A stretch of 64,000 bases of DNA from a virus. Within the stretch, counting starts at the first letter, position 1. The number at the start of each line of letters is the position of its first letter. The position numbers were made by a program, and so were the translations under genes. The stretch lies in the IMG/VR virus record IMGVR_UViG_3300038620_000134, positions 17,725 through 81,724 of that record. One strand, written 5' to 3'. The notes beneath the pieces are model-generated. The model saw nothing but the letters and a program-made list of their open reading frames with translations. It searched no databases and was not told the DNA's origin. This document shows positions 3,444 to 63,357 of this stretch, piece after piece.

Positions 3444-3680
3444 ATGCAAAATCAACAACAAGAAAAAAGAGAAAGGGTAGTTGTCTTGCTTAGAGACAGA
3501 ACCAAAGAGTCCACTACAGGAAAATCAATTACTGTTAGTGAAGTTGATTCTTTGGATGGAACCAATAGTCATCCTCACGACCGTTCTAGTTTTTTAATGG
3601 TTTTTAATGAGGAAGACGGTTCGTGGCAAGTTTTCGCCAGGGACCTAGTTGTATATGTTAAAAAATATTACGTTGAATAA
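3444..3680 (+). CDS. Hypothetical protein
   Basis: 78-aa ORF with A-rich leader. Confidence 0.7.
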   Translation: MQNQQQEKRERVVVLLRDRTKESTTGKSITVSEVDSLDGTNSHPHDRSSFLMVFNEEDGSWQVFARDLVVYVKKYYVE

Positions 3681-3682
3681 CT

Positions 3683-4689
3683 ATGAATCGTTATTGCGAT
3701 AACTCCAAAACAAATTTGATTGAAGATTATGTAGACCATCTCTTAGATGGTCTACTCTTCGCTTTTAATCCTGATAATTCTAACGGTGAATGGTCATCTC
3801 ATGTAACACCTTTTTAGGTGTTCATAACGATAATATTGAAATCTACATAACAGTTACTGAAAATGGTAAACTTGTAGTAACTGATGACAAAGTTACAATA
3901 TTTGAAGCGAGTTCACTTCTTGACACAGACAAAGTTTCTGAACTTGTAAAAATTATTACAAACTTTTACTCTATTGAAGAATTTAATACCGAACTTTATA
4001 TTACAACTGACCTGAACAATTTTAAAACTGATTTTACCAGATTTATTCAGGCTTTAATTGCTTCCCACTTTTTAATTAGTAATATGAATAAGTTTAATAA
4101 AACACATAGAACTATTGATACTTATTTATACGAAATTGTTAAAAATTATTACTTAATACATAAGTCAGATGGTGATTGTAAGTCTAACTTTTTTGTGGGC
4201 ATTACAAGTGATAGTGATATGAATTCTAAAGTTAGTGAAATATCAAAAAAACATCCAAATATGTATGGATTCACTTCTTATCGTGTTGATTTAGATAAAA
4301 ATTTTGATGAAGAAACCGCATTTGATTTTTTAGAAAATTTATTAAACCTAGTGATTAAATTAGCTAAGGAAGGATTTCTTATAATAGAAAATGATTATAA
4401 CAAATATTTATTATCAGAGATTAGTAATTATTATAGTAAACTAGAGTTTGAAAATTATTGGAATAACCTTTCACCAGATACTGAACCAGAAGATGTTTTA
4501 AGAAAATTTGTATTTGACTATAAACACATATCAAATCCAAGTATTGATTACAAACCTCTTAAAATATACATGTTTAGAAGAAACTCAAATATATATAAGA
4601 AGGTGAAAACTAAAACAATAAATAAAAATGATAAAAACCTCGTTAGATGGTGGAAACAACTATGTAGTTTATTTGGCAAATTTTTTTAG
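3683..4689 (+). pseudogene. DUF1828-like protein split by a -1 frameshift at 3809-3817
   Basis: 3683-3817 ends ...SHVTPF*; the -1 frame continues LGVHNDNIEIY...VTDD, restoring the TPFLD.HND.I.IY...SDD pattern recalled for DUF1828. Confidence 0.6.
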
Positions 4690-6156: not shown

Positions 6157-6244
6157 AGGGGGATGGCAGAGCGGTCGATTGCACCGGTCTTGAAAACCGG
6201 CAGCCAGCTACGCTGGTTCGGGGGTTCGAATCCCTCTCCCCCTG
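6157..6244 (+). tRNA. tRNA-Ser(UGA)
   Basis: Acceptor AGGGGGA/TCCCCCT, anticodon arm CCGGT-CT-TGA-AA-ACCGG, long variable arm, GGTTCGAATC; CCA not encoded. Confidence 0.95.
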
Positions 6245-6277
6245 CTTATGGTTTTTAACTAAAAATTAAAGTTTTGC

Positions 6278-6342: not shown

Positions 6343-6963
6343 ATGACTAACACAACTAAATTTCCAATCGAAGAGCTTTACGCTGAGCCGGAAAAGTTTT
6401 TACTAGCAAGTGAAAATTACGATTTAGGTTACCCTGAGCTTTACTATTTAGCATATGGTAGCCTAATGAAGTGGCATTCTTGTGAGGCTCATTTGGTCTT
6501 GGTGAAGTTAAACTCAAATAAATACGGGCTTGGAGAGTCTGATTTAGAAGAATTTGAGCTTCGCCTTAAAATGGTGGCTAGTCTTTATCAGAACTGGCAA
6601 AATGAGCTGCAAGATTATTGGCAGTTATGTGACGAGTTCGGGGCCAGATATTCTATCACTCTAAGTGATGTTTATAAAAATTCGCTTCCGTTAGATGACG
6701 AAGGCGAACACGAAATTGAAAAAGTTAAAAACTTGAGTATTGAAGCTGCTAAAAGAGCTATTAAAGCAGAAAACTTAGCGGCGGTTAGATGGCTAAACCA
6801 GTTCTGGTTGGAGGCTGATATTTGGAAACAATTGAATTCTAAACCAGATTCTAAAAGAGTTGTACAAGCCCGCTGGTTAAAAGAGCTTTTCGTGTTTGAT
6901 CTTGTTGGAGAAGATAAGTATCCTATGTGGAAAAAACCATTATCGTCTTTTTCTGAACTTTAA
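6343..6963 (+). CDS. Hypothetical early protein
   Basis: 206-aa ORF directly behind an early promoter. Confidence 0.8.
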   Translation: MTNTTKFPIEELYAEPEKFLLASENYDLGYPELYYLAYGSLMKWHSCEAHLVLVKLNSNKYGLGESDLEEFELRLKMVASLYQNWQNELQDYWQLCDEFGARYSITLSDVYKNSLPLDDEGEHEIEKVKNLSIEAAKRAIKAENLAAVRWLNQFWLEADIWKQLNSKPDSKRVVQARWLKELFVFDLVGEDKYPMWKKPLSSFSEL

Positions 6964-7015
6964 TTGTTTTAATTATGCCAGACTTTACCAAAAATACGAA
7001 AAAGAAAATCAAAAA

Positions 7016-7043
7016 CTAAAAAAGAATTATAAAGCTTTTTTAG
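7016..7043. other. Hairpin upstream of tnpB (possible IS605 left-end relic)
   Basis: CTAAAAAAG-N10-CTTTTTTAG inverted repeat; low complexity. Confidence 0.35.
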
Positions 7044-7059
7044 TGATTATTGGCCTATT

Positions 7060-8250
7060 ATGAGTGAGCAAAAGACAATTTATAGAGCCTACAAGTTTCG
7101 ATTAAAGCCTACTAAAGAGCAAGCTGAACTGCTCGACAAGACTTTCGGCTGCGTACGGCTTATTTACAACTATATGCTGGCCCAGCGTAAGGAGCATTAT
7201 GAAAAGACTGGTAAATCTCCGAATGTCTACGAGCAATCACGCCAACTCCCAGAATTAAAACGGACTGAAGAATTTGGCTTTTTGAAGGAAATCGACTCAG
7301 CTGCGTTGGTTAGTGCTGTTTGGGATTTGGACGATGCTTATCAAAGATTTTTCAAAAAACATGGTAAGTATCCTAAGTTTAAGTCTAAGCACAAAAGTAA
7401 AAAAAGTTATAGTTCCTTTTCTAACACGTGCAAAATAAAAGGTGATCGTGTATATGCGCCTAAGTTTAAGAAACAGGGTATAAAAGTCATTGCACACCGT
7501 CTTATTGTGGGCAAGACTAAGACCATGACCTTCAGCAAGACACCTAGCGGGAAGTATTACGTTTCTATCTTTGTAGAAGAGCTATATACGCCCCCCGAAC
7601 CTACGGGTGAAGCTGTTGGTATTGACCTAGGTATAAAAGAGCTTGCTGTTACGTCGGACGGTCAGCGTTACGAGAACGCGAAATATTTGCAGAAATACGA
7701 GAAAAAACTGGCAAAAGCTCAAAAAGATTTAGCCCGTAAAAAGGGAAGTAAGAAATGTGAGGAAAAAAGCAATAGCTATATCCGTCAAAAACAGAAAGTC
7801 GCCAAGCTGCATGAGAAGGTAGCAAATTCGAGAAAAAACTTGCTGCACGAAATATCGCGGGAAGTCGTAGATAACTATGATACGATAGCTTTGGAAGACT
7901 TGAATGTTCAAGGTATGAAGCAAAACCGGAAACTGGCCAAAAATATCAGCGACGTTAGTTGGGGTATGTTCAAAGAAATGCTAAAATACAAGGCAGAACG
8001 AGATAATAAACAGGTTGTGGCGATAAACCGATATTATCCAAGCAGTAAAACCTGCCATATTTGCGGGGATGAGAAGGAAAATCTAAGTCTCTCGGAGCGA
8101 GAGTGGACGTGTTCAAACGGCCACGTCTTAGACCGGGACCTGAATGCAGCAATAAATATATTAAATCAAGGATTACTAAAATTAGAATCGGCAGCAGATG
8201 TCGATAACACGGGTGGAGTCGAAGTAAATCCTGTTTCGACAGGTGTTTGA
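7060..8250 (+). CDS. tnpB: IS200/IS605-family RNA-guided nuclease TnpB, array-associated
   Basis: N-terminal YKFRLKPT..Q...L..TFGC.R.IYN; RuvC-I GIDLG, RuvC-II LEDL, zinc ribbon CHIC...CSNGH, RuvC-III DRDLNAAINI; D-E-D triad intact. Confidence 0.96.
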   Translation: MSEQKTIYRAYKFRLKPTKEQAELLDKTFGCVRLIYNYMLAQRKEHYEKTGKSPNVYEQSRQLPELKRTEEFGFLKEIDSAALVSAVWDLDDAYQRFFKKHGKYPKFKSKHKSKKSYSSFSNTCKIKGDRVYAPKFKKQGIKVIAHRLIVGKTKTMTFSKTPSGKYYVSIFVEELYTPPEPTGEAVGIDLGIKELAVTSDGQRYENAKYLQKYEKKLAKAQKDLARKKGSKKCEEKSNSYIRQKQKVAKLHEKVANSRKNLLHEISREVVDNYDTIALEDLNVQGMKQNRKLAKNISDVSWGMFKEMLKYKAERDNKQVVAINRYYPSSKTCHICGDEKENLSLSEREWTCSNGHVLDRDLNAAINILNQGLLKLESAADVDNTGGVEVNPVSTGV

Positions 8251-8319
8251 CTATGAAACTCGAAGCTCTTTCAAATTTGAAGAGGGAATACCTGACGCAA
8301 GGAAGCGAGGAAAAACGGG
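8187..8319 (+). ncRNA. omegaRNA/reRNA scaffold plus native guide (5' end approximate)
   Basis: Stems ATCGGCA/TGTCGAT, CGGGT..AGTC/GACT..ACTCG, CCTGT-TTCG-ACAGG and terminal hairpin CTCTT..AAGAG ending CTGAC at 8296; overlaps the tnpB 3' end as expected. Confidence 0.8.
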
Positions 8320-8579
8320 GTCGGAGTCCCTCTGCAATTTTGAGAGGGTATCTGACTCATAGATAATTTTTATTTTATTTATTCAGTAAAAAGTCGGAGT
8401 CCCTCTGCAATTTTGAGAGGGTATCTGACTTAATCCGCTTATTTATGTTACGAACTGATCACAAAAAAAGGTGAGAGTCCCTCTAACACTTTGAAAGGGT
8501 ATCTGACAAAGAAGTGCTTGAGGCTTGCGATGCCAGAATTAAGTGAGAGTCCCTCTAACACTTTGAAAGGGTATCTAAT
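8259..8579 (+). CRISPR. CRISPR-like mini-array: degenerate first unit 8259-8296 plus four 37-nt repeats (8320-8356, 8393-8429, 8471-8507, 8543-8579)
   Basis: R1=R2 GTCGGAGTCCCTCTGCAATTTTGAGAGGGTATCTGAC; R3 GTGAGAGTCCCTCTAACACTTTGAAAGGGTATCTGAC; R4 as R3 but ending TCTAAT; unique spacers of 23, 36, 41 and 35 nt. Confidence 0.92.
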
Positions 8580-8670
8580 GTTGACAAGGTAAAATGAAAA
8601 ATTGAACATGAAAGAAGAAGAGCGCTATTAGAAATAATAAGATATATTAAACCACCAAAATAAAAGTACT

Positions 8671-9978
8671 ATGAATATGGAATACCCTGAAATTTATGCG
8701 TTTTCTGGAAAAATAGGTTCTGGAAAAAACTTCATGGCAGAAAAAATATTTCCTGAATATCTTTCTTCTAAGTCCACACTTGTAATGGCATTTGCCGATG
8801 TATTTAAAGTTAGGGCTATCATTGAAGAGGGTTTAGATGAAAAGAAAGTATTTGAAGGGCCGAAAGATGAGGAAACACGTAGAATCCTTCAAATTTATGG
8901 CACTGAAGAAGGACGTGATAAAAAAGGAGAAGATATATGGTGCAGGTATTTGGAACAGTATATTAGATTATATTCTCAAAGAAAATCTATTGAAAGGGTT
9001 ATTATAACAGATTTACGTTTTGAAAATGAAGCAAACTATTTAAGATCACTTGGAGCTTATTTGATTCGTGTAGAAGCACCTAATAGAAACAAAAGTGCAC
9101 TTGAACAAGAAGCGTCCAATAAAGATGGCAACGTTCAATATGATGTTTATAATAAAATTTCGCAACACCCTAGTGAAACAGGTTTAGATAACTGGACAGA
9201 TTGGGATTTAGTAATTCATAATGATTACGAAGATTCTCCTTATATCCACATTCGTGATTGGGTAGTAAATCACCGCGAATCTAAACATTTTTATTCGCAT
9301 GTTGTTTTGATAGATCTTGATGATACGGTTGTTAGTTGTGGTCAAAAATATCATGAAAAAATTGACAAAGCATGTGATCTTATTATCAAGGAAAAATCTA
9401 AAAATTTAACTAAAAAACAAGTAAAAAATACTTTTAAAGAGTTGGATTCTGATCGCCTTAATTCTTTTTATGATCGCTATCGGCTTTCTAAAAAATTAAA
9501 AGAGTTGGGAGTTTACTATAACGTATCAAGTTCTACACTAGAAAAATTATATGAGCTGGGTATTCAAGTTTATAAAGATACGTTTGAATATCTTTCAGGG
9601 TCTTATGAAGCACTAAATTTACTTTGGAAAAATTTGGATAATAATGATAAATTGATTATCTTTACACTTGGAAGACGCGAAGATCAAGTTCGAAAAATAC
9701 ACGAACTTGGGCTTTTTGATATTGAGCATGAAATTGTTGAAACAAGAAAATCTGATGATGTTTACCAACAAGTTAAAAAAGATTATCCAGCTAATAAATA
9801 TACTATGATTGGAGATTCTTTGGAAAATGATGTTTATCCTGCATTATCAGCAGACTTTAACAATATTTATTGGGTAAATAGTTATTCTAATCAAAGCTCT
9901 TTGTATGATTATTTTGTTGTGAAAGACTTACAAGAGGCTGTTTATCATTTTTTAAACCTAAAAGATAAAGTAACATGA
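8671..9978 (+). CDS. dNMP-kinase-like P-loop domain fused to HAD phosphatase
   Basis: GKIGSGK, R.ILQ.YGTE, ITDLRFENE, HPSE; then DLDDT and MIGDSLENDV HAD motifs. Confidence 0.88.
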   Translation: MNMEYPEIYAFSGKIGSGKNFMAEKIFPEYLSSKSTLVMAFADVFKVRAIIEEGLDEKKVFEGPKDEETRRILQIYGTEEGRDKKGEDIWCRYLEQYIRLYSQRKSIERVIITDLRFENEANYLRSLGAYLIRVEAPNRNKSALEQEASNKDGNVQYDVYNKISQHPSETGLDNWTDWDLVIHNDYEDSPYIHIRDWVVNHRESKHFYSHVVLIDLDDTVVSCGQKYHEKIDKACDLIIKEKSKNLTKKQVKNTFKELDSDRLNSFYDRYRLSKKLKELGVYYNVSSSTLEKLYELGIQVYKDTFEYLSGSYEALNLLWKNLDNNDKLIIFTLGRREDQVRKIHELGLFDIEHEIVETRKSDDVYQQVKKDYPANKYTMIGDSLENDVYPALSADFNNIYWVNSYSNQSSLYDYFVVKDLQEAVYHFLNLKDKVT

Positions 9979-38328: not shown

Positions 38329-39849
38329 ATGCGAATAAAATCTTTCCAAGAATACATTAATTCGACTTCCATTGATGAAGCACTCCATCCAAGTCAAGCA
38401 AAACCATATATTAAAGCATGGAAAGAAGCTGGAGGTGAAAAATTTTATCGTGACATCTTTGGAAAGAAAGAAAATGGAAAACCCAAATATAGACTTTACT
38501 TGGAGCTTAAAGAATCCAAAGAGCAGAAACAAAAGATAAGCAAAGATGTTAGGGATAGAATCAATAAAGCTTTAGAATATACAAATTATGAAGTTGAAGA
38601 TTTTAATCAAAATTTAGCAATTTCAAAAGATGGTGAAAATACTAAAAAAGTAACAAGTGAACTTTCAAAAAATAAAAAATTAAAAAAACAAGATGAAATT
38701 AATATAGATAAACTCCTTCAAGATTACAGTGAGGAACTAAGTAAAAAGTCAACCCAAAGAGAACAAGACGATTATCTTGTAGTAATTTCACGGCATCCAT
38801 ACGATATTGCGGGGATGAGCACCGATAGAGGTTGGACTAGTTGTATGGACTTAGATACTGGAAGTCAAAAATTCTATGTAATGGAAGATGTTAAAAAGGG
38901 AACAATTATAGCTTATTTAATTAAAAAAGATGACTTGAATATTAATAATCCTGTTGCACGGATTTTAATAAAACCTTATGTTAGTGGGGACGGTGAAGAA
39001 ATTGCACTGTTTAGAGATAAAGAAGTAGATGAATTTAAAGGAGAACCAGTTAAGGGATTTAAAGAAACAATTGATGCTTGGCTAGAAAAGAATCAAAAGT
39101 TAAGTAAAACCAAGTATTATCAACTTCAAGGATTGTATAAAGATGGAAAGTGTGAATATAATCCAGATGCTCCAGTTAAAGCTATACTAAATGATTTTGT
39201 TAAAGGAACTTTTGAAGTAGATGGAAACACAATTAGTGTTAATGGGAATGTAAATTTACGTAGAAAACCTAAAGTTTTTAAAAAAATTACAAAAAACTAT
39301 AAGTTTGGATATGTTAGTGGTAATTTTAATTGTTCTAATAATAATTTAACATCCCTTGAAGGTGCACCTGAAGAAGTTGGGGGTTATTTTATTTGTGAGT
39401 ATAACAAATTAACATCCCTTGAAGGTGCCCCTGAAAAAGTTGGGGGTAGTTTTATGTGTTCTCGTAATGGATTAACATCCTTGGAAGGTGCACCTGAAGA
39501 AGTTGTAAGTGGTTTTATTTGTGATGATAATAATTTAACATCCCTTAAAGGTGCCCCTGAAAAAGTTGGGGGTAGTTTTATTTGTTATAGGAATGGTTTA
39601 ACATCCCTTGAAGGTGCACCCGAAAAAGTTGGAGGTGAATTTGATTGTAGATTTAATCAATTAACATCCCTTGAAGGTGCACCTGAAAAAGTTGGAGGTG
39701 ATTTTTATTGTAGATTTAATCAATTAACATCCCTTGAAGGTGCACCTGAAAAAGTTGGAGGTGATTTTTATTGTGGTAAGAATAAAAAAGATTTTACAAA
39801 AGAAGATGTTAAAGCTGTTTCTGATGTTGAAGGTGAAATAAAAGTTTAA
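38329..39849 (+). CDS. LRR-like repeat protein A (7 full 21-aa repeats)
   Basis: GxFxCxxNxLTSLEGAPEKVG units at 39319-39759; N-domain SRHPYDIAGMSTDRGWTSCM. Confidence 0.9.
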   Translation: MRIKSFQEYINSTSIDEALHPSQAKPYIKAWKEAGGEKFYRDIFGKKENGKPKYRLYLELKESKEQKQKISKDVRDRINKALEYTNYEVEDFNQNLAISKDGENTKKVTSELSKNKKLKKQDEINIDKLLQDYSEELSKKSTQREQDDYLVVISRHPYDIAGMSTDRGWTSCMDLDTGSQKFYVMEDVKKGTIIAYLIKKDDLNINNPVARILIKPYVSGDGEEIALFRDKEVDEFKGEPVKGFKETIDAWLEKNQKLSKTKYYQLQGLYKDGKCEYNPDAPVKAILNDFVKGTFEVDGNTISVNGNVNLRRKPKVFKKITKNYKFGYVSGNFNCSNNNLTSLEGAPEEVGGYFICEYNKLTSLEGAPEKVGGSFMCSRNGLTSLEGAPEEVVSGFICDDNNLTSLKGAPEKVGGSFICYRNGLTSLEGAPEKVGGEFDCRFNQLTSLEGAPEKVGGDFYCRFNQLTSLEGAPEKVGGDFYCGKNKKDFTKEDVKAVSDVEGEIKV

Positions 39850-40570: not shown

Positions 40571-43500
40571 ATGGCAGAAGTCGCAACTAATTTTAACGTT
40601 AATCTTGATAGATACAAAGCATCTGGCGTATATTTAGCTGAAATAGATCGTTCAGCCGAACAACAACAAACTGCAAGCCCAACAACTCGTGTTGTAATTG
40701 GTTTTTCCCGTAAAGGCCCCGTTATGACACCTGTTTATTTGGAACGCAAAGAAACAGCACGTGATGTTTTTGGTGAAATTGATGAATCACTTGAAAGAAA
40801 AGGGTCATTTTTTCACAGAACTATTGATACTTGCCTGAATGAAGGACCTGTTTTTGCAATTAACATGATTCCATTTGTTAATGAAGTTGATGACTTAGGC
40901 AATCCAACTGCCGATGCTGATGTTGCTCCATATAGGTCTTTTTCAACTGATGTTACTGGTGATAACGGACGCGGTGAATGGGACACACCCACACCATCTC
41001 CAGATGTTTTTCCATTCAATCATCCTCGGTTTTCGGGTTACAATCTAAGACTTTATACAAGTTACTATAACAAAGAACGTTTTTGGTTTCCAAGTGTAGA
41101 TAATCTTTTAGCAACTCGCGTTGATGAAGATAAAGTTACAAATCTAAATGGTAGAGTAATTGGTGGAAAAATTCTTAACTTTGTTAATCTGGGCAAAACA
41201 CCTATAACTGTTTTTGTAAGAAAAGCACCATCAAATAAAACTGATGGTTTTAGATTAACTGCTCGTGAATGGTATGAAGATAACGAAGATATTCCACCTT
41301 TTGTTAAAGAGTCTGATTATATATCAGATTACTTTTTAGAAGTAATATTAGTAAAAGGTAATTTTGGAAAGTCTTCATATGAAGATTTAAGTAATGATCA
41401 GTTTTTAAATCCCTATTTTACAGAAAATGGAATAATTGCTGATAAGTTTGATGAACTACTTGATAGCAATTTAATTCCTGTAATTTCTCGATTTGTTGGA
41501 ACCATTATTCCAAACTTCCGAGATAAGCAAGATATTGACTGGTTTATAGAAGATATAATTAACCGCCAATTTGCAAGAACTGGATTATTTTGTGCTGTTG
41601 ACACAAATGAACTTGATCGCTATGAAACAGGGCAAAATGATTACTATGTAGATTTTGTAGGTCACAGACTTTTAGACACAAGTAACTTTACTGAAAATAA
41701 TCCAGACTGGAATGGTAACATTGACTTCTTAAGCTACAGAACTCCATTCAAAGAGAATCTTAAATATGAACAAGTTTCTTTGCCTATTAATATGGCCAAT
41801 CCGAATTCTATTTTTGCTGGTGATGCTAATTTTACCAGTGATAGTGTTTCTGAATTAAGTAATGATGATTTAATTTCTAATAATGTTATTGAATTTTTAG
41901 AAAATCAAAATTCCGATAGCAGATTTTCATTTTACATTTATGATACAATAGATCAAGCAACAGGTAGTTATTACGCCAATTCACTTTTTGATAAGCTTAG
42001 TAATTTAACTCCTAATGATTCTTATATTGTTTTAGATATTGTTTTAGATGACAATAATGTAAATACACCACCTGTAACAACTAAGCTTTACACTCAAGTT
42101 AAAAAGCTACTTCAACAAAATGTTGGAAATCAAACTGCCATTAAAGTTGAAGTTGAAAACTTGACTGATGTTAGTGGAAGCACTAACATGGAACCATATA
42201 CAAATATAAGTTTAGAAAGTGGTGCCTTTACCCATCTGGTTTTTGAAAGAGATGGTTTTAATGCTGGTATTGGATCATCTCCCACCTTCTTATATGCGAA
42301 TAAAAATTCAAAATTATATCAAGATTGGAAAAATGGTGTTATTGCCGATGGTGATAAAGTGTTCCATGATATTGGCTCCACCAATGATACATATTTTGAT
42401 GAATTTTACACCATTGAGTTTGAACAAACAAAAGACCCAAACTTTAAGGATCTTGTTTTGAAAGTTAACTTCTTTAACCCGAATGGAAGTTCCTTTAACA
42501 TTTCTAATCTTATTTTCCAAGCTGGTGAAAACTATGTTAAAAATTCAAATAATCCTGATGCAACAAGTCCAGCAGCTTTAACACCAAATCAAGCTGGTTA
42601 CTTAAATGTTGTTTCTAATAGTGGAAGTCTTAATACTTATGTTGATTATCAAGCATTTCCCGATACCAGTGTTAAAAATCGAGTGTTAATACCTGATATA
42701 CCAGCATGGAGAGATGATGCACGACCTGGTAACTTTATTCGGGCTAAGGATCGTAATGATAATCCCATCCTTGCCCGTATTACTAGAGTTCGTGGTGGTT
42801 ATGAATACAATGGAATGAAATGGTTAAATGTAGAAAGTGTTGCAAGAATTGAACCATTTGAAGTTTTTGGAACACCCGAAACTACACCACAGGGATATAC
42901 AATAAAAGGAACTGTAGAAATTTGGCGCCCTATTGAAAATAGTATCAAGTATATTGATGGTACTTATTTGAATGGACTTCAACTAAATGATAATCACATA
43001 CCAAAACCGAATGAAAGTTATGTTAGAGAATTTTATAAGCTGTTAGAAGATACGAATCTTAAAGAAGCTCTTTCAGATAAAAATCAAATTACATGGAGGT
43101 ATGTAGTAGATACATTTAACCAAGGACTTGATGAAATGTCTGGCGGTAAACAATATCTTACACGTCTTGCTAAAAGCCGTTGGAAAGCATTGGCATTTGT
43201 TAATGCTCCATCCATTCAAGAATTTATTGATAGTACTGACCCAATTTTTACTGAACTGCCAACGCCTAGAAGCCCACGCCCAACGCTAAAAACTGAATAC
43301 ATAGCAACGGGTGGTAACTTAGATCAAAATCCAAACAGGATTTATTCGTTGCCAGATTTTGATAATGGTGCGAGTCATTCTGGTTTCTTTATTCCAAATA
43401 TTATAATTCGAGATGGTAACAAAACAGTTTCTGTTCCACCTGCTGCATACATTTCAAATCTTTATGTAAGAAAGTTCAAAAATGGTAATCCATTTCAAGC

Positions 43501-44020
43501 AATTGGTGGTAATAGAAAGGGTAGAATTACTGGTGCTAACATATCTGGATTAGAGTATGACTTTACCAAATCAGATAGGGCCAATATAGAACCCTTTGGA
43601 CTAAATCCAATGGTTAAACGACCAGATGGGTCTATTGTTGTAATGGGTGAAAGAACAGCGTATCAACGCGTTAATTCTCAACTAAACGGATTGCATGTTC
43701 GGGATGTTCTTATTTCAATTGAAATTCAAATTGAGAATATATTGGAAACTTATCTTTTTGAACCCAATGATGATGCAACAAGAAACGCAATTGAAAATGA
43801 AATTAGTTCATATCTTGAAACTGTTTTTGTAAATGATGGCATTCGACAAAATTATGAGGTGAAAATGGATTCTTCAAACAATGGGCCGGATGTTATTTCA
43901 GAAAACTTTGGCATTGTTGATGTTAAAGTTGAACCCGTTGGTGCTATTTACAAATATCTTAACAGGGTTTCTATTTTACCAAGTGGTGGACTAAATTCAT
44001 CTGGATTTCAACCCGCTTAA
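40571..44020 (+). CDS. Contractile tail sheath protein (gp18-like) with large insertions
   Basis: SGVY..EIDRS, GFSRKGP..TPV; C-terminal VPPAAY, GLNP, GERT, LHVRDVL, LFEPND..TR, MDSSNN. Confidence 0.93.
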   Translation: MAEVATNFNVNLDRYKASGVYLAEIDRSAEQQQTASPTTRVVIGFSRKGPVMTPVYLERKETARDVFGEIDESLERKGSFFHRTIDTCLNEGPVFAINMIPFVNEVDDLGNPTADADVAPYRSFSTDVTGDNGRGEWDTPTPSPDVFPFNHPRFSGYNLRLYTSYYNKERFWFPSVDNLLATRVDEDKVTNLNGRVIGGKILNFVNLGKTPITVFVRKAPSNKTDGFRLTAREWYEDNEDIPPFVKESDYISDYFLEVILVKGNFGKSSYEDLSNDQFLNPYFTENGIIADKFDELLDSNLIPVISRFVGTIIPNFRDKQDIDWFIEDIINRQFARTGLFCAVDTNELDRYETGQNDYYVDFVGHRLLDTSNFTENNPDWNGNIDFLSYRTPFKENLKYEQVSLPINMANPNSIFAGDANFTSDSVSELSNDDLISNNVIEFLENQNSDSRFSFYIYDTIDQATGSYYANSLFDKLSNLTPNDSYIVLDIVLDDNNVNTPPVTTKLYTQVKKLLQQNVGNQTAIKVEVENLTDVSGSTNMEPYTNISLESGAFTHLVFERDGFNAGIGSSPTFLYANKNSKLYQDWKNGVIADGDKVFHDIGSTNDTYFDEFYTIEFEQTKDPNFKDLVLKVNFFNPNGSSFNISNLIFQAGENYVKNSNNPDATSPAALTPNQAGYLNVVSNSGSLNTYVDYQAFPDTSVKNRVLIPDIPAWRDDARPGNFIRAKDRNDNPILARITRVRGGYEYNGMKWLNVESVARIEPFEVFGTPETTPQGYTIKGTVEIWRPIENSIKYIDGTYLNGLQLNDNHIPKPNESYVREFYKLLEDTNLKEALSDKNQITWRYVVDTFNQGLDEMSGGKQYLTRLAKSRWKALAFVNAPSIQEFIDSTDPIFTELPTPRSPRPTLKTEYIATGGNLDQNPNRIYSLPDFDNGASHSGFFIPNIIIRDGNKTVSVPPAAYISNLYVRKFKNGNPFQAIGGNRKGRITGANISGLEYDFTKSDRANIEPFGLNPMVKRPDGSIVVMGERTAYQRVNSQLNGLHVRDVLISIEIQIENILETYLFEPNDDATRNAIENEISSYLETVFVNDGIRQNYEVKMDSSNNGPDVISENFGIVDVKVEPVGAIYKYLNRVSILPSGGLNSSGFQPA

Positions 44021-44213: not shown

Positions 44214-46037
44214 ATGCGAATAAAATCTTTCCAAGAATACATTAATTCGAGTTCCATTGATGAAGCACTCCATCCAAGTCAAGCTAAATCTTATATTAAA
44301 GCATGGAAAGAAGCTGGAGGTGAAAAATTTTATCGTGACATCTTTGGAAAGAAAGAAAATGGAAAACCCAAATATAGACTTTACTTAGAACTCGAAGAGT
44401 CTGAAGAACAAAAACAAAAGATAAGTAAAGATGTTAGAGATAGAATCAATAAAGCTTTAGAATATACAAACTATGAAGTTGAAAATTTTAATAAGAATAT
44501 AGCGGTTTCGGATAAAAGAACAACCAGTATTATAAAAGTTTTAATGAAAGATAGTGGTCTTAAAAAGAGTGATATAAATGTTCAAAAGTTAAAAAGTGAT
44601 TACGAAAAAGAACTTAATAAGAAATCAACTCAGAGAAAACAAGATAACTATCTTGTAGTGATTTCGCGTCATCCATACGATATTGCTGGAATGAGCACGG
44701 ATAGAGGTTGGACTAGTTGTATGGACTTAGATACTGGAGGTCAAACATTTCATATAATGGAAGATGTTAAAAAGGGAACTATAATTGCATATCTTATTAA
44801 AAAAGATGACTTGAATATAAACAACCCTGTTGCACGGGTTTTAATAAAACCTTATGTTAGTGAAGATAGTGAAGAAATTGCTTTATTTAGAGATAATTAT
44901 AAAGAAATTAAAGGAGAACCAGTAAAGGGATTTAAAGAAACAATTGATGCTTGGCTAGAAAAGAATCAAAAGTTGAGTAAAAGTAAGTACAAACAACTTA
45001 AAGGACTATATGACGAGGGAAGATGTGCTTATAATCCAGATGCTTCAATTGAAGCTATATTAAATGATTTTGTTAAAGGAACTTTTGAAGTAGATGGAAA
45101 CACAATTAGTGTTAATGGGGATGTAAATTTACGTAGAAAACTTGAAGTTTTTAAAAAAATTACAAAAAACTATAAGTTTGGATATGTTAGTGGTGATTTT
45201 TACTGTTCTAATAACGACTTAACTTCTCTTGAGGGTGCTCCTGAAGAAGTAGGTGGTAATTTTAATTGTGAGTATAACAAATTAACATCCCTTGAAGGTG
45301 CACCTGGAGAAGTTGGGGGTGATTTTGATTGTAAATTTAATAATTTACGAACACTTGAAGGTTCACCTGAAAAAGTTGGGAGTAATTTTAGTTGTATATT
45401 TAATAAATTAACAACTCTTGAAGGTGCACCTGGAGAAGTTGGGGGTGATTTTGATTGTTCCCATAACAATTTAGCATCCCTTGAAGATGCACCTAAAAAG
45501 GTTGGGGGTGAATTTAATTGTCTTGGTAATAGTTTAACATCCCTTAAAGGTGCCCCTGAAAAAGTTGGGGGTAAATTTAACTGTAGTGGAAACCAATTAA
45601 CATCACTCGAAGGTGCTCCTGAAAAGGTTGGGGATAATTTTATTTGTAGATCTAATAAATTAACTTCCCTTGAGGGTGCTCCTGAAAAGGTTGGGGGTAG
45701 TTTTATTTGTTATAGGAATGATTTAACATCCCTTAAGGGCACACCTAAAAAGGTTGGGGATGATTTTTATTGTATGAATAATAAATTAACATCCCTTGAT
45801 GGAGGACCTGAAGAAGTTGGGGGTCGTTTTGATTGCTCTCATAATAAATTAACTTCCCTTGATGGTGCTCCTAAAAAAATTGGAAGTGATTTTAGTTGTA
45901 CGTTTAACAAATTAACATCTCTTCAAAGTGCACCCGAAAAAGTTGGAGGTGATTTTGATTGTAGATTTAATAGAGAAAATTTTACAAAAGAAGATGTAAA
46001 AGCTGTTTCTGATGTTGAAGGTGAAATAAAAGTTTAA
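44214..46037 (+). CDS. LRR-like repeat protein B (12 full 21-aa repeats)
   Basis: N- and C-termini nearly identical to 38329-39849; repeats at 45192-45947. Confidence 0.9.
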   Translation: MRIKSFQEYINSSSIDEALHPSQAKSYIKAWKEAGGEKFYRDIFGKKENGKPKYRLYLELEESEEQKQKISKDVRDRINKALEYTNYEVENFNKNIAVSDKRTTSIIKVLMKDSGLKKSDINVQKLKSDYEKELNKKSTQRKQDNYLVVISRHPYDIAGMSTDRGWTSCMDLDTGGQTFHIMEDVKKGTIIAYLIKKDDLNINNPVARVLIKPYVSEDSEEIALFRDNYKEIKGEPVKGFKETIDAWLEKNQKLSKSKYKQLKGLYDEGRCAYNPDASIEAILNDFVKGTFEVDGNTISVNGDVNLRRKLEVFKKITKNYKFGYVSGDFYCSNNDLTSLEGAPEEVGGNFNCEYNKLTSLEGAPGEVGGDFDCKFNNLRTLEGSPEKVGSNFSCIFNKLTTLEGAPGEVGGDFDCSHNNLASLEDAPKKVGGEFNCLGNSLTSLKGAPEKVGGKFNCSGNQLTSLEGAPEKVGDNFICRSNKLTSLEGAPEKVGGSFICYRNDLTSLKGTPKKVGDDFYCMNNKLTSLDGGPEEVGGRFDCSHNKLTSLDGAPKKIGSDFSCTFNKLTSLQSAPEKVGGDFDCRFNRENFTKEDVKAVSDVEGEIKV

Positions 46038-62612: not shown

Positions 62613-63002
62613 TTATTTAAGGGTTAGCAAATAGCTTACTTTACTAAGTAAATTTTGGGCTTCAAAAACAATATGCTCAATATCAGCGTCTTGCTTTTTG
62701 TCTAATATTCCCATATTCCAAATGTCTTCATTTAGAAACTTTATAGATGAATGTATAAAGTTTTGAAGGTTAGTATCATCATAATTTATGAGTTCAATTT
62801 TTCCAGTTCCTTGAAAATAAATTCTACCATATTTTCCTTGATAGGTTTCAATCAATCTATCAAAAATATCAACGAGACCCTCATACATTACTTGGAGTGC
62901 ATTGTGTTCAGCATAAGAATTTGTCTGTAAATGTAAAATATGTGCTTGATCTCGCATCCTAAGAATTTCTGTTAAAAGCATTTGGGAGTTATAGTTTTTC
63001 AT
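62613..63002 (-). CDS. Ferritin/Dps-like four-helix protein (DUF5856-like)
   Basis: HLQT.SYAEH.AL...YE.L....D.L.E.YQGKYGR, YLLTL. Confidence 0.85.
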   Translation of the reverse strand: MKNYNSQMLLTEILRMRDQAHILHLQTNSYAEHNALQVMYEGLVDIFDRLIETYQGKYGRIYFQGTGKIELINYDDTNLQNFIHSSIKFLNEDIWNMGILDKKQDADIEHIVFEAQNLLSKVSYLLTLK

Positions 63003-63357
63003 ATTTTTATTTTATTTATTTGGATTTATTAACTTTTTAATGTATTCTACAAGTTCATTTTGTGTTGATGTTTGATGAAAAAATCTAAAAGCTAAACCAG
63101 AATCTCCATGTTGGTTATATTGGTTAATATATCCTTGTAAAAATCCTGTCATAGACTGGCTTTTATAAAATTCTTTGTTTTCTTTTATTTTATTACTCGT
63201 TGTTTGAAAAAAATATTTTAATACAGCATCACTTTCATCATAGATTAGATTGGGTGTAAGAAATTTGTCTAAAGAAAGTTATTTTTTAAAAAAATCAACA
63301 AAGCCACATATTGAGTATATATTAAATTATAATGATTATAAAAACTATATAGACAAT

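Follow-up and report, generated by a model that had tools for sequence, protein, structure and literature searches.

In a DNA stretch of 64,000 nucleotides (nt) from a large tailed phage (positions 17,725 to 81,724 of the IMG/VR virus record IMGVR_UViG_3300038620_000134, hereafter the window, in whose own numbering all coordinates are given), a gene encoding the RNA-guided nuclease TnpB is directly followed by its guide RNA scaffold, or omegaRNA (also called right-end RNA, reRNA), and by a short CRISPR-like array of four repeats. This locus is probably a nascent system of the TranC kind, a name given to TnpB-like nucleases that work with arrays and a split reRNA (PMC13565253, PMC13639567, bioRxiv 10.64898/2026.03.27.714800). 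Its origin was probably independent and very recent, since the nearest relatives of the protein are ordinary TnpBs without arrays. As to whether the array is in use, we consider the balance to be even.

The explanation that we propose would begin with an ISDra2-like TnpB that was captured and immobilised in the phage while its omegaRNA scaffold stayed whole, with a single cis guide (g0). Of this scaffold, the terminal ~37-45 nt, comprising the right-end hairpin and its tail, would have been copied four times, with a different sequence of 35-41 nt coming to stand after each copy. tnpB, omegaRNA and array would be read as a single transcript, and the scaffold would serve both as an ordinary omegaRNA and as a partner resembling a trans-activating CRISPR RNA (tracr), its weak terminal hairpin contributing the 5' arm (8266-8275) that pairs with the conserved 3' arm of a repeat. 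This pairing would bring the first ~16-20 nt of the following spacer into the guide position, and TnpB would cut DNA that is flanked by a transposon-associated motif (TAM) and matches one of as many as five or six guides, the probable targets being rival phages or other mobile elements. Transcription, the splitting of the RNA, the use of the spacers and the nature of the targets are all steps that we infer, and the explanation as a whole, a captured and immobilised TnpB making split-guide use of its array, has in our estimation an even chance of being right.

Anatomy of the locus

Established for this locus are its anatomy, the similarity of its repeats to the terminal hairpin module R0, an intact set of catalytic residues, and a record in which TnpA and Cas1 are missing. 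The features are as follows.

7060..8250, + strand: tnpB, encoding an ISDra2-like RNA-guided nuclease of 396 amino acids (aa), recognized from its open reading frame (ORF), Pfam domains, alignment and PDB matches
8188..8296, + strand: omegaRNA (reRNA) scaffold, overlapping the 3' end of tnpB and ending 46 nt past the stop codon
8254..8296, + strand: R0, terminal hairpin module of the omegaRNA, degenerate and weakly folded
8297..8319, + strand: g0, cis guide, 23 nt, with a guanine-plus-cytosine (GC) content of 57%, unlike the phage DNA
8320..8356, + strand: repeat R1, identical to R2, a strong hairpin
8357..8392, + strand: spacer s1, 36 nt, 11% GC
8393..8429, + strand: repeat R2
8430..8470, + strand: spacer s2, 41 nt
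8471..8507, + strand: repeat R3, first member of subtype two, its own hairpin weak
8508..8542, + strand: spacer s3, 35 nt
8543..8579, + strand: repeat R4, terminal, with a degenerate end (CTAAT for CTGAC)
8580..8615, + strand: s4, inferred to be a possible last guide, or else flank toward the deoxynucleoside monophosphate (dNMP) kinase-HAD gene

The array lies directly downstream of tnpB on the same strand and comprises four direct repeats of 37 nt with start-to-start spacings of 73, 78 and 72 nt; the spacers between them (36, 41 and 35 nt) are unique, as is the 23-nt stretch ahead of the first repeat. A 30-nt consensus pattern of the repeats matched four times in the window and not once in any of 100 shuffled versions. 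The repeats fall into two subtypes, R1 and R2 being identical over 37/37 positions and R3 and R4 over 35/37, with 30/37 positions shared between R1 and R3. R1 and R2 are predicted to form a strong hairpin (-19.4 kcal/mol, z -5.5). On the + strand no terminator-like site was detected between tnpB and the end of the array, and a promoter scan returned one promoter-like site where 4.7 were expected, which provides no evidence for a promoter.

The stretches 5' of each repeat (8297-8542) end A-rich, in GGAAAAACGGG, GTAAAAA, CAAAAAAAG and AGAATTAA, and these runs align loosely with a GAA..C segment, invariant in the family, that stands before the terminal hairpin. The real repeat unit may measure ~45 nt, which would make the guides shorter by the same amount.

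The 396-aa ORF matched the Pfam families HTH_OrfB_IS605 (3.7e-21), OrfB_IS605 (4.5e-27) and Cas12f1-like_TNB (5.9e-23), as well as PHROG 506 (5.3e-130). Residues D189, E279 and D360 were invariant in an alignment of this TnpB with 23 homologs, and so were C332, C335 and C351. We take the first three to be the equivalents of D191, E278 and D361 of ISDra2 TnpB, and the RuvC D-E-D triad is intact. A preliminary description of this DNA, made from the letters alone, had reported a 396-aa TnpB with an intact RuvC triad and, directly after it, four 37-nt repeats with spacers of 23, 36, 41 and 35 nt; both the protein and the positions and lengths of the array were confirmed. In a search of PDB, ISDra2 TnpB (8h1j/8bf8) was matched over residues 9-395 with an E value of 3e-65, and LaTranC (9jfo) with 9e-33. 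The best homologs among 5.8 billion proteins were ordinary TnpBs of 359-428 aa, 49-56% identical; the nearest relatives, at 50-56% identity, lack arrays. Every one of 434 matching phage records showed less than 60% identity to the protein, and a single-protein query of IMG/VR returned no close relative.

Origin of the repeats

The scaffold was delimited with a covariance model built from the aligned 3' ends of 13 viral relatives, from which the window was excluded. This model matched positions 8188-8296 over its full length (1-107; 51.5 bits, E 1.7e-10), and it also matched the loci of 62 of the 80 viral relatives that made up our conservation set (65 matches at E<=0.001). As the scaffolds of the relatives end in a conserved hairpin and tail and diverge immediately afterwards, the end of the scaffold was placed at 8296 and g0 at 8297-8319. 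With a second model, built from 56 sequences of the terminal module only, R0 ranked first in the 64-kb window (18.6 bits, E 0.026). R0 is homologous to the transposon right-end hairpin.

In direct alignments to R0, shuffled sequences scored as well as the true repeat in 0 of 2000 cases for R1/R2, in 2 of 2000 for R3 and in 58 of 2000 for R4. R0 and the repeats also depart jointly from the family consensus, in the loop and in a tail that ends in CTGAC instead of TTCAC. Because of this similarity beyond shuffles and of these shared departures, the repeats are read, on sequence grounds, as probable diverged copies of the element's own terminal hairpin module, that is, of the last ~37-45 nt of its scaffold. 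Such copying agrees with the proposal, put forward in PMC10691335, that type V arrays arise "by serial duplication of omegaRNA segments".

A different kind of duplication was seen in one relative, the high-GC locus L069, whose TnpB is 43% identical. At 3562-3841 of this locus a 121-nt scaffold is duplicated in tandem, with 87% identity and 38 nt between the copies, and by the terminal-module model it was the only one among the 80 relatives with two tandem terminal modules. L069 is a two-guide "omegaRNA array" and shows the propensity of the family to multiply guides.

Signs of a split guide

R0 is a poor hairpin. Its minimum free energy is -4.5 kcal/mol as compared with a family mean of -14.8, and only 2 of 56 modules are equally weak. 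Its 5' half is predicted to pair better with the 3' halves of R1-R4 (-13.7 to -13.9 kcal/mol) than with its own 3' half (-6.9), and for R3 and R4 this pairing in trans also surpasses that between the repeat's own arms (-12.3 and -10.0). The 5' arm of R0 (8266-8275) is thus a candidate anti-repeat according to the folding model. The single 3' change between the subtypes breaks the repeat's own stem and retains the pair with the 5' arm of R0. Co-folding predicted that scaffold and repeat dimerise by way of the terminal module; for the full omegaRNA the predicted gain was 5.5-12.6 kcal/mol. The combination of a weak R0 and a stronger pairing in trans would be consistent with a tracr-like role of the scaffold.

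Use of the array against an inert by-product

The chief alternative is that duplication or recombination at the omegaRNA and right-end hairpin left the repeats behind locally as unused remnants, with only g0, or nothing at all, functional. We regard this as possible though doubtful. Several results weigh against an array in use, and part of them are those that such an inert by-product would leave. Beginning with the pairing, the own arms of R1 and R2 (-20.4 kcal/mol) are stronger than their pairing in trans (-13.9). The pairing and co-folding figures are thermodynamic predictions made without a shuffle control, and hairpins that are homologous should cross-pair to some extent for that reason by itself. 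Farther upstream, the scaffold region 8100-8253 contained no anti-repeat beyond shuffles, the whole-region duplexes of that search recovering only the pairing between the arms of R0 and R1. The degeneracy of R0 would be just as compatible with decay of the entire RNA module. As for the repeats, the terminal-module model of the family misses R1-R4 (no match at E<=10), and their homology to the family appears to run through R0 only. They number only four and are split into two subtypes; the end of R4 is degenerate, and the hairpins of R3 and R4 are weak (-9.6 and -7.3 kcal/mol, z -1.3 and -0.6), and among the "hairpin repeats" of the preliminary description only R1 and R2 fold strongly. Spacer s1 is of low complexity, at 11% GC, and the same array was found across four metagenome runs without turnover of spacers.

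No target was identified for the spacers either. None scored above shuffled controls as a self-target in the 81.7-kb record. When 8297-8625 was compared by BLAST with 50,697 phage and 72,556 plasmid records, all matches were AT-rich (E>=0.3), and exact 20-mers of s2 and s3, the two spacers scanned in this way, had no match in IMG/VR. The single IMG/VR match of an 18-mer of g0 lies in coding DNA of a high-GC phage (L162) and does not extend further; we consider it to be at chance level, 1-2 matches being expected by a rough estimate with an assumed collection size. These protospacer searches relied on exact 18-20-mers or on BLAST against cultured-phage and plasmid sets. Nor is the arrangement conserved: a short-repeat array downstream of tnpB occurred in 0 of the 80 viral relatives, whose TnpBs are 39-55% identical and a few of whose loci end early downstream (e.g. 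L045). A screen for exact 12-mers flagged four loci, three with coding or unrelated repeats and a fourth, L040, with one 12-mer pair.

Other properties of the locus speak against an inert by-product. R1 and R2 are identical over 37 nt, yet the sequences following them share nothing. The boundaries are clean and the spacing is regular, at 72-78 nt. The 3' half of the repeat, which would pair with the scaffold, is better kept than the 5' half, the subtypes differing at 1 of 18 positions in the former and at 6 of 19 in the latter (Fisher p 0.09), and the tnpB ORF is intact, with invariant catalytic residues. The preliminary description had seen here a multi-target intermediate between TnpB and Cas12. 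This interpretation is partly supported, by an intact TnpB without TnpA directly upstream of the array, by repeats apparently derived from the 3' hairpin of its own omegaRNA and by the lack of a matching host-type repeat in the collections searched. The use of more guides than g0 would be a prediction, no spacer found a target, and the arrangement recurs in none of 80 relatives.

The reverse complement of s1 looks like a late-gene leader of the source phage, with a AATAAATA motif, an A-rich leader and an ATG, and s2 bears the same 8-nt motif. Self-targeting by s1 at the leader 62999-63020 was considered and rejected: the two share 4 + 18 nt with a 5-nt insertion between them, and the score equals the shuffle median, i.e. 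chance level. Since 24 of 108 ORFs have the motif [AT]ATAAATA in the 50 nt upstream of them, the likeness of s1 may reflect only a consensus of late leaders. A more ambitious view would hold that this is a CRISPR-like array at its birth in a phage, in which, with a TnpB that has gained no domain, a one-piece omegaRNA is turning into a split guide, its weakened terminal hairpin yielding the 5' arm as anti-repeat to four repeat-spacer units, and in which these units are gained without Cas1-Cas2, at least s1 and s2 having come from the late-promoter or leader regions of related AT-rich phages and rivals being cut during co-infection; we consider it unlikely.

Phages are known to carry mini-arrays with host-type repeats, and such a precedent makes it conceivable that the repeats copy a host CRISPR repeat and that host Cas proteins load the spacers, TnpB being an unrelated neighbour. 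This case, in which a match to host type I/III repeats had been named beforehand as part of what would overturn the reading, is very improbable. The repeat pattern, in a search that demanded 18 exact bases, had no match in IMG/VR and one chance-like match in each of 51 metagenome and 24 genome loci, none of them multi-copy and none near a TnpB; the repeat thus matched no host-type CRISPR repeat in the viral, metagenome and genome collections searched. Furthermore, the repeats resemble the end of the locus's own omegaRNA.

Mobility of the element

In the 81,724-base record we found no match to the Y1 TnpA family, none to the Cas1 family and only one copy of TnpB. No left-end hairpin was detected upstream of tnpB with the terminal-module model (E<=10), and alignment of the upstream regions yielded no reliable left end or TAM. 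Since TnpA, a left-end hairpin and Cas1 are all missing from this record, the element looks immobilised. The marks of a mobile IS200/IS605 element (a Y1 TnpA, left-end and right-end hairpins, several copies) were accordingly not all present in a record that is ~31% complete. The earlier statement that there is neither tnpA nor a cas gene is upheld for Y1 TnpA and Cas1, the two families covered by the search.

Many relatives show partial matches to the terminal-module model, limited to the hairpin, ~470-560 nt upstream of tnpB (L005:1961-1983, L006:1956-1978, L007:1938-1960, L019:1973-1995, L024:2012-2034, L030:1979-2001 and others). These are probably left-end hairpins, with room for a tnpA between them and tnpB.

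The terminal hairpin of the omegaRNA is at the same time the right-end hairpin of the transposon, and this fact, together with the upstream hairpins of the relatives and the incompleteness of the record, could speak for an element of IS200/IS605 type that still moves. The repeats would then be copies of the right end bound by TnpA, in a cluster like those of REP or PATE elements or through nested insertions, and TnpA would be supplied by the unsequenced 69% of the phage or by the host. We give this alternative little credence. Neither a Y1 TnpA nor a second TnpB or a second omegaRNA copy occurs in 81.7 kb, nor is there a left-end hairpin upstream of tnpB; the copies are all direct, each corresponding exactly to the last 37 nt, without left-end remnants between them; and no contig in the four metagenome runs carried an excised or empty form.

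The captured TnpB could also act through its cis guide only, like a free-standing phage homing endonuclease, cutting the empty site in co-infecting relatives as a means of homing or marker exclusion that does not involve the array. Its site is a variable region that adjoins a tRNA gene and a methylase, like the homing-endonuclease islands of T4-like phages, and non-restorative homing driven by TnpB is discussed in PMC13565253. This explanation is nevertheless improbable: g0, with 57% GC in a phage of 30% GC, is unlike a native phage flank, and no phage relative with an empty site was found. A captured TnpB that makes split-guide use of its array is our preferred reading, at the even chance given above.

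Source phage and genomic setting

The source record comprises 81,724 bases, with a CheckV completeness of 31. Genes for a tail sheath of 1149 aa, a DNA helicase and a ParB-like protein in the window mark the source as a large tailed phage, and three tRNAs are present as well. The preliminary description had spoken of a jumbo phage; the genes for tail sheath, helicase and ParB-like protein are present, and a genome size of ~260 kb would follow only from the completeness value.

The locus was carried on contigs of four tidal-flat sediment metagenome runs, and no joints, excised form or empty site were seen on these contigs; stretches left uncovered in some of the runs were excluded from this reading. 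Outside the tRNA gene described below, the rest of the 4 kb showed no differences among the metagenome contigs. In run X1, a minor contig of 89 nt (8261-8349; depth 4 vs 11.4) shows four differences, including 8291 C>T, 8307 G>T and 8315 A>C. Of these three, 8291 C>T makes the tail of R0 identical to that of the repeats and the other two fall within g0. The cause is either that strains vary in the guide or that the repeats affected the assembly.

The GC content of tnpB is 41%, as compared with 30% for the whole record, a value that ranks among the top 0.6% when windows of the same size are compared; because of this difference, the tnpB block is considered foreign. Directly 5' of it lies an orphan ORF of 206 aa (6343-6963; GC 37.7% vs 30%), with no relative in Pfam, PHROG or Atlas, which may have arrived together with the TnpB block. 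The tRNA-Ser(TGA) gene just upstream of the island (6157-6245) reached depths of 27-162, compared with 1-12 nearby, in the metagenome runs. It attracts many contigs of other organisms, and depth at this place is therefore uninformative on the phage. The immediate flanks of the locus are the following.

6964..7059, no strand assigned: upstream intergenic region, with an AT-rich palindrome at 7015-7044 and no detectable left-end hairpin
8671-9978: dNMP kinase-HAD gene, the next gene downstream of the array

No sister phage was found by way of the 206-aa neighbour. With the dNMP kinase as query, one distant locus was obtained (L136, 41% identity), in which other genes lie in between, and the methylases of the window and of L136 are similar at the level of motifs only. 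Elsewhere in the window, tandem repeats of 63 nt (21 aa) are present in 7 copies at 39319-39775 and in 12 copies at 45219-45972. They lie inside the large ORFs 38329-39849 and 44214-46037, which flank the tail sheath gene (40571-44020) and look like leucine-rich-repeat-like structural or host-binding proteins.

Comparison with known systems

The closest parallel in the known guide systems is TranC, a group of transposon-CRISPR intermediates (Jin et al., Cell 2025;188:6283, doi 10.1016/j.cell.2025.09.004). In both cases a TnpB-like nuclease of IS605 descent is accompanied by a short downstream CRISPR array without adaptation genes, and just as the array repeat of TranC is the counterpart of the ancestral reRNA's 3' portion, the repeats of the present locus resemble R0, the end of its omegaRNA. 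Unlike TranC, the unsplit omegaRNA is here complete, with a guide of its own, and directly abuts the array; moreover, the protein's similarity to ISDra2 TnpB (E 3e-65) far exceeds that to LaTranC (E 9e-33). TranCs reportedly use both CRISPR RNA (crRNA) and reRNA guides; if so, the coexistence of omegaRNA and array found here was already anticipated.

With the TnpB-omegaRNA complex of ISDra2 (PDB 8h1j, 8bf8/8exa), the locus shares the domains, length and catalytic residues of the protein, an overlap of the omegaRNA with the 3' end of the gene and a guide placed directly after the right end. It differs in that TnpA and the left end are missing and only one copy is present, and in having a weakened terminal hairpin and four extra copies of it with spacers of their own.

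Two phage-borne systems are also related. CauTranC9, located in a Caudoviricetes genome with five copies of a 38-bp repeat (bioRxiv 10.64898/2026.03.27.714800), is likewise a nuclease of TnpB size, without expanded REC/WED domains, in a phage genome. It has a determined protospacer-adjacent motif (PAM) and phage-matching spacers, unlike the present locus; the two were compared by description only. Cas12r of the Thermus Lalka phages is an experimentally active TnpB-like nuclease with a short degenerate array, for which a role in conflicts among mobile elements has been proposed (bioRxiv 10.64898/2026.04.20.719267). Its 564 aa, 29-bp repeats and crRNA as sole guide contrast with the 396 aa, 37-nt repeats and whole omegaRNA of the present system. 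For the majority of Cas12r spacers the match is to Thermus integrative elements, whereas no target was found for ours.

On a broader scale, ~50 independent origins of Cas12 have been proposed, and in nearly all conserved associations of Cas12 with an array the latter lies downstream of the gene (Altae-Tran et al., PNAS 2023, PMC10691335). The array reported here is equally downstream of its nuclease gene. The omegaRNA arrays of that same work repeat units of >60 bp, as against the present one, where only the last 37 nt are repeated, as in a true CRISPR repeat.

Intermediates between TnpB and Cas12 that possess arrays are therefore already published, some of them phage-borne, with TranC, CauTranC9 and Cas12r as examples in the sources cited. 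The general idea has been demonstrated in other lineages, and the value of this locus is that of an early-stage specimen and not of a new principle. What is newly seen here, as judged from the DNA, is a complete omegaRNA scaffold (8188-8296), repeats that appear to be diverged copies of R0, and a weak R0 with predicted pairing in trans. If active, the system would be among the smallest and least derived natural multi-guide nucleases, bringing together in one place an unmodified 396-aa ISDra2-like TnpB, an intact omegaRNA and an array, and it would add a further case of a large phage armed with an RNA-guided nuclease.

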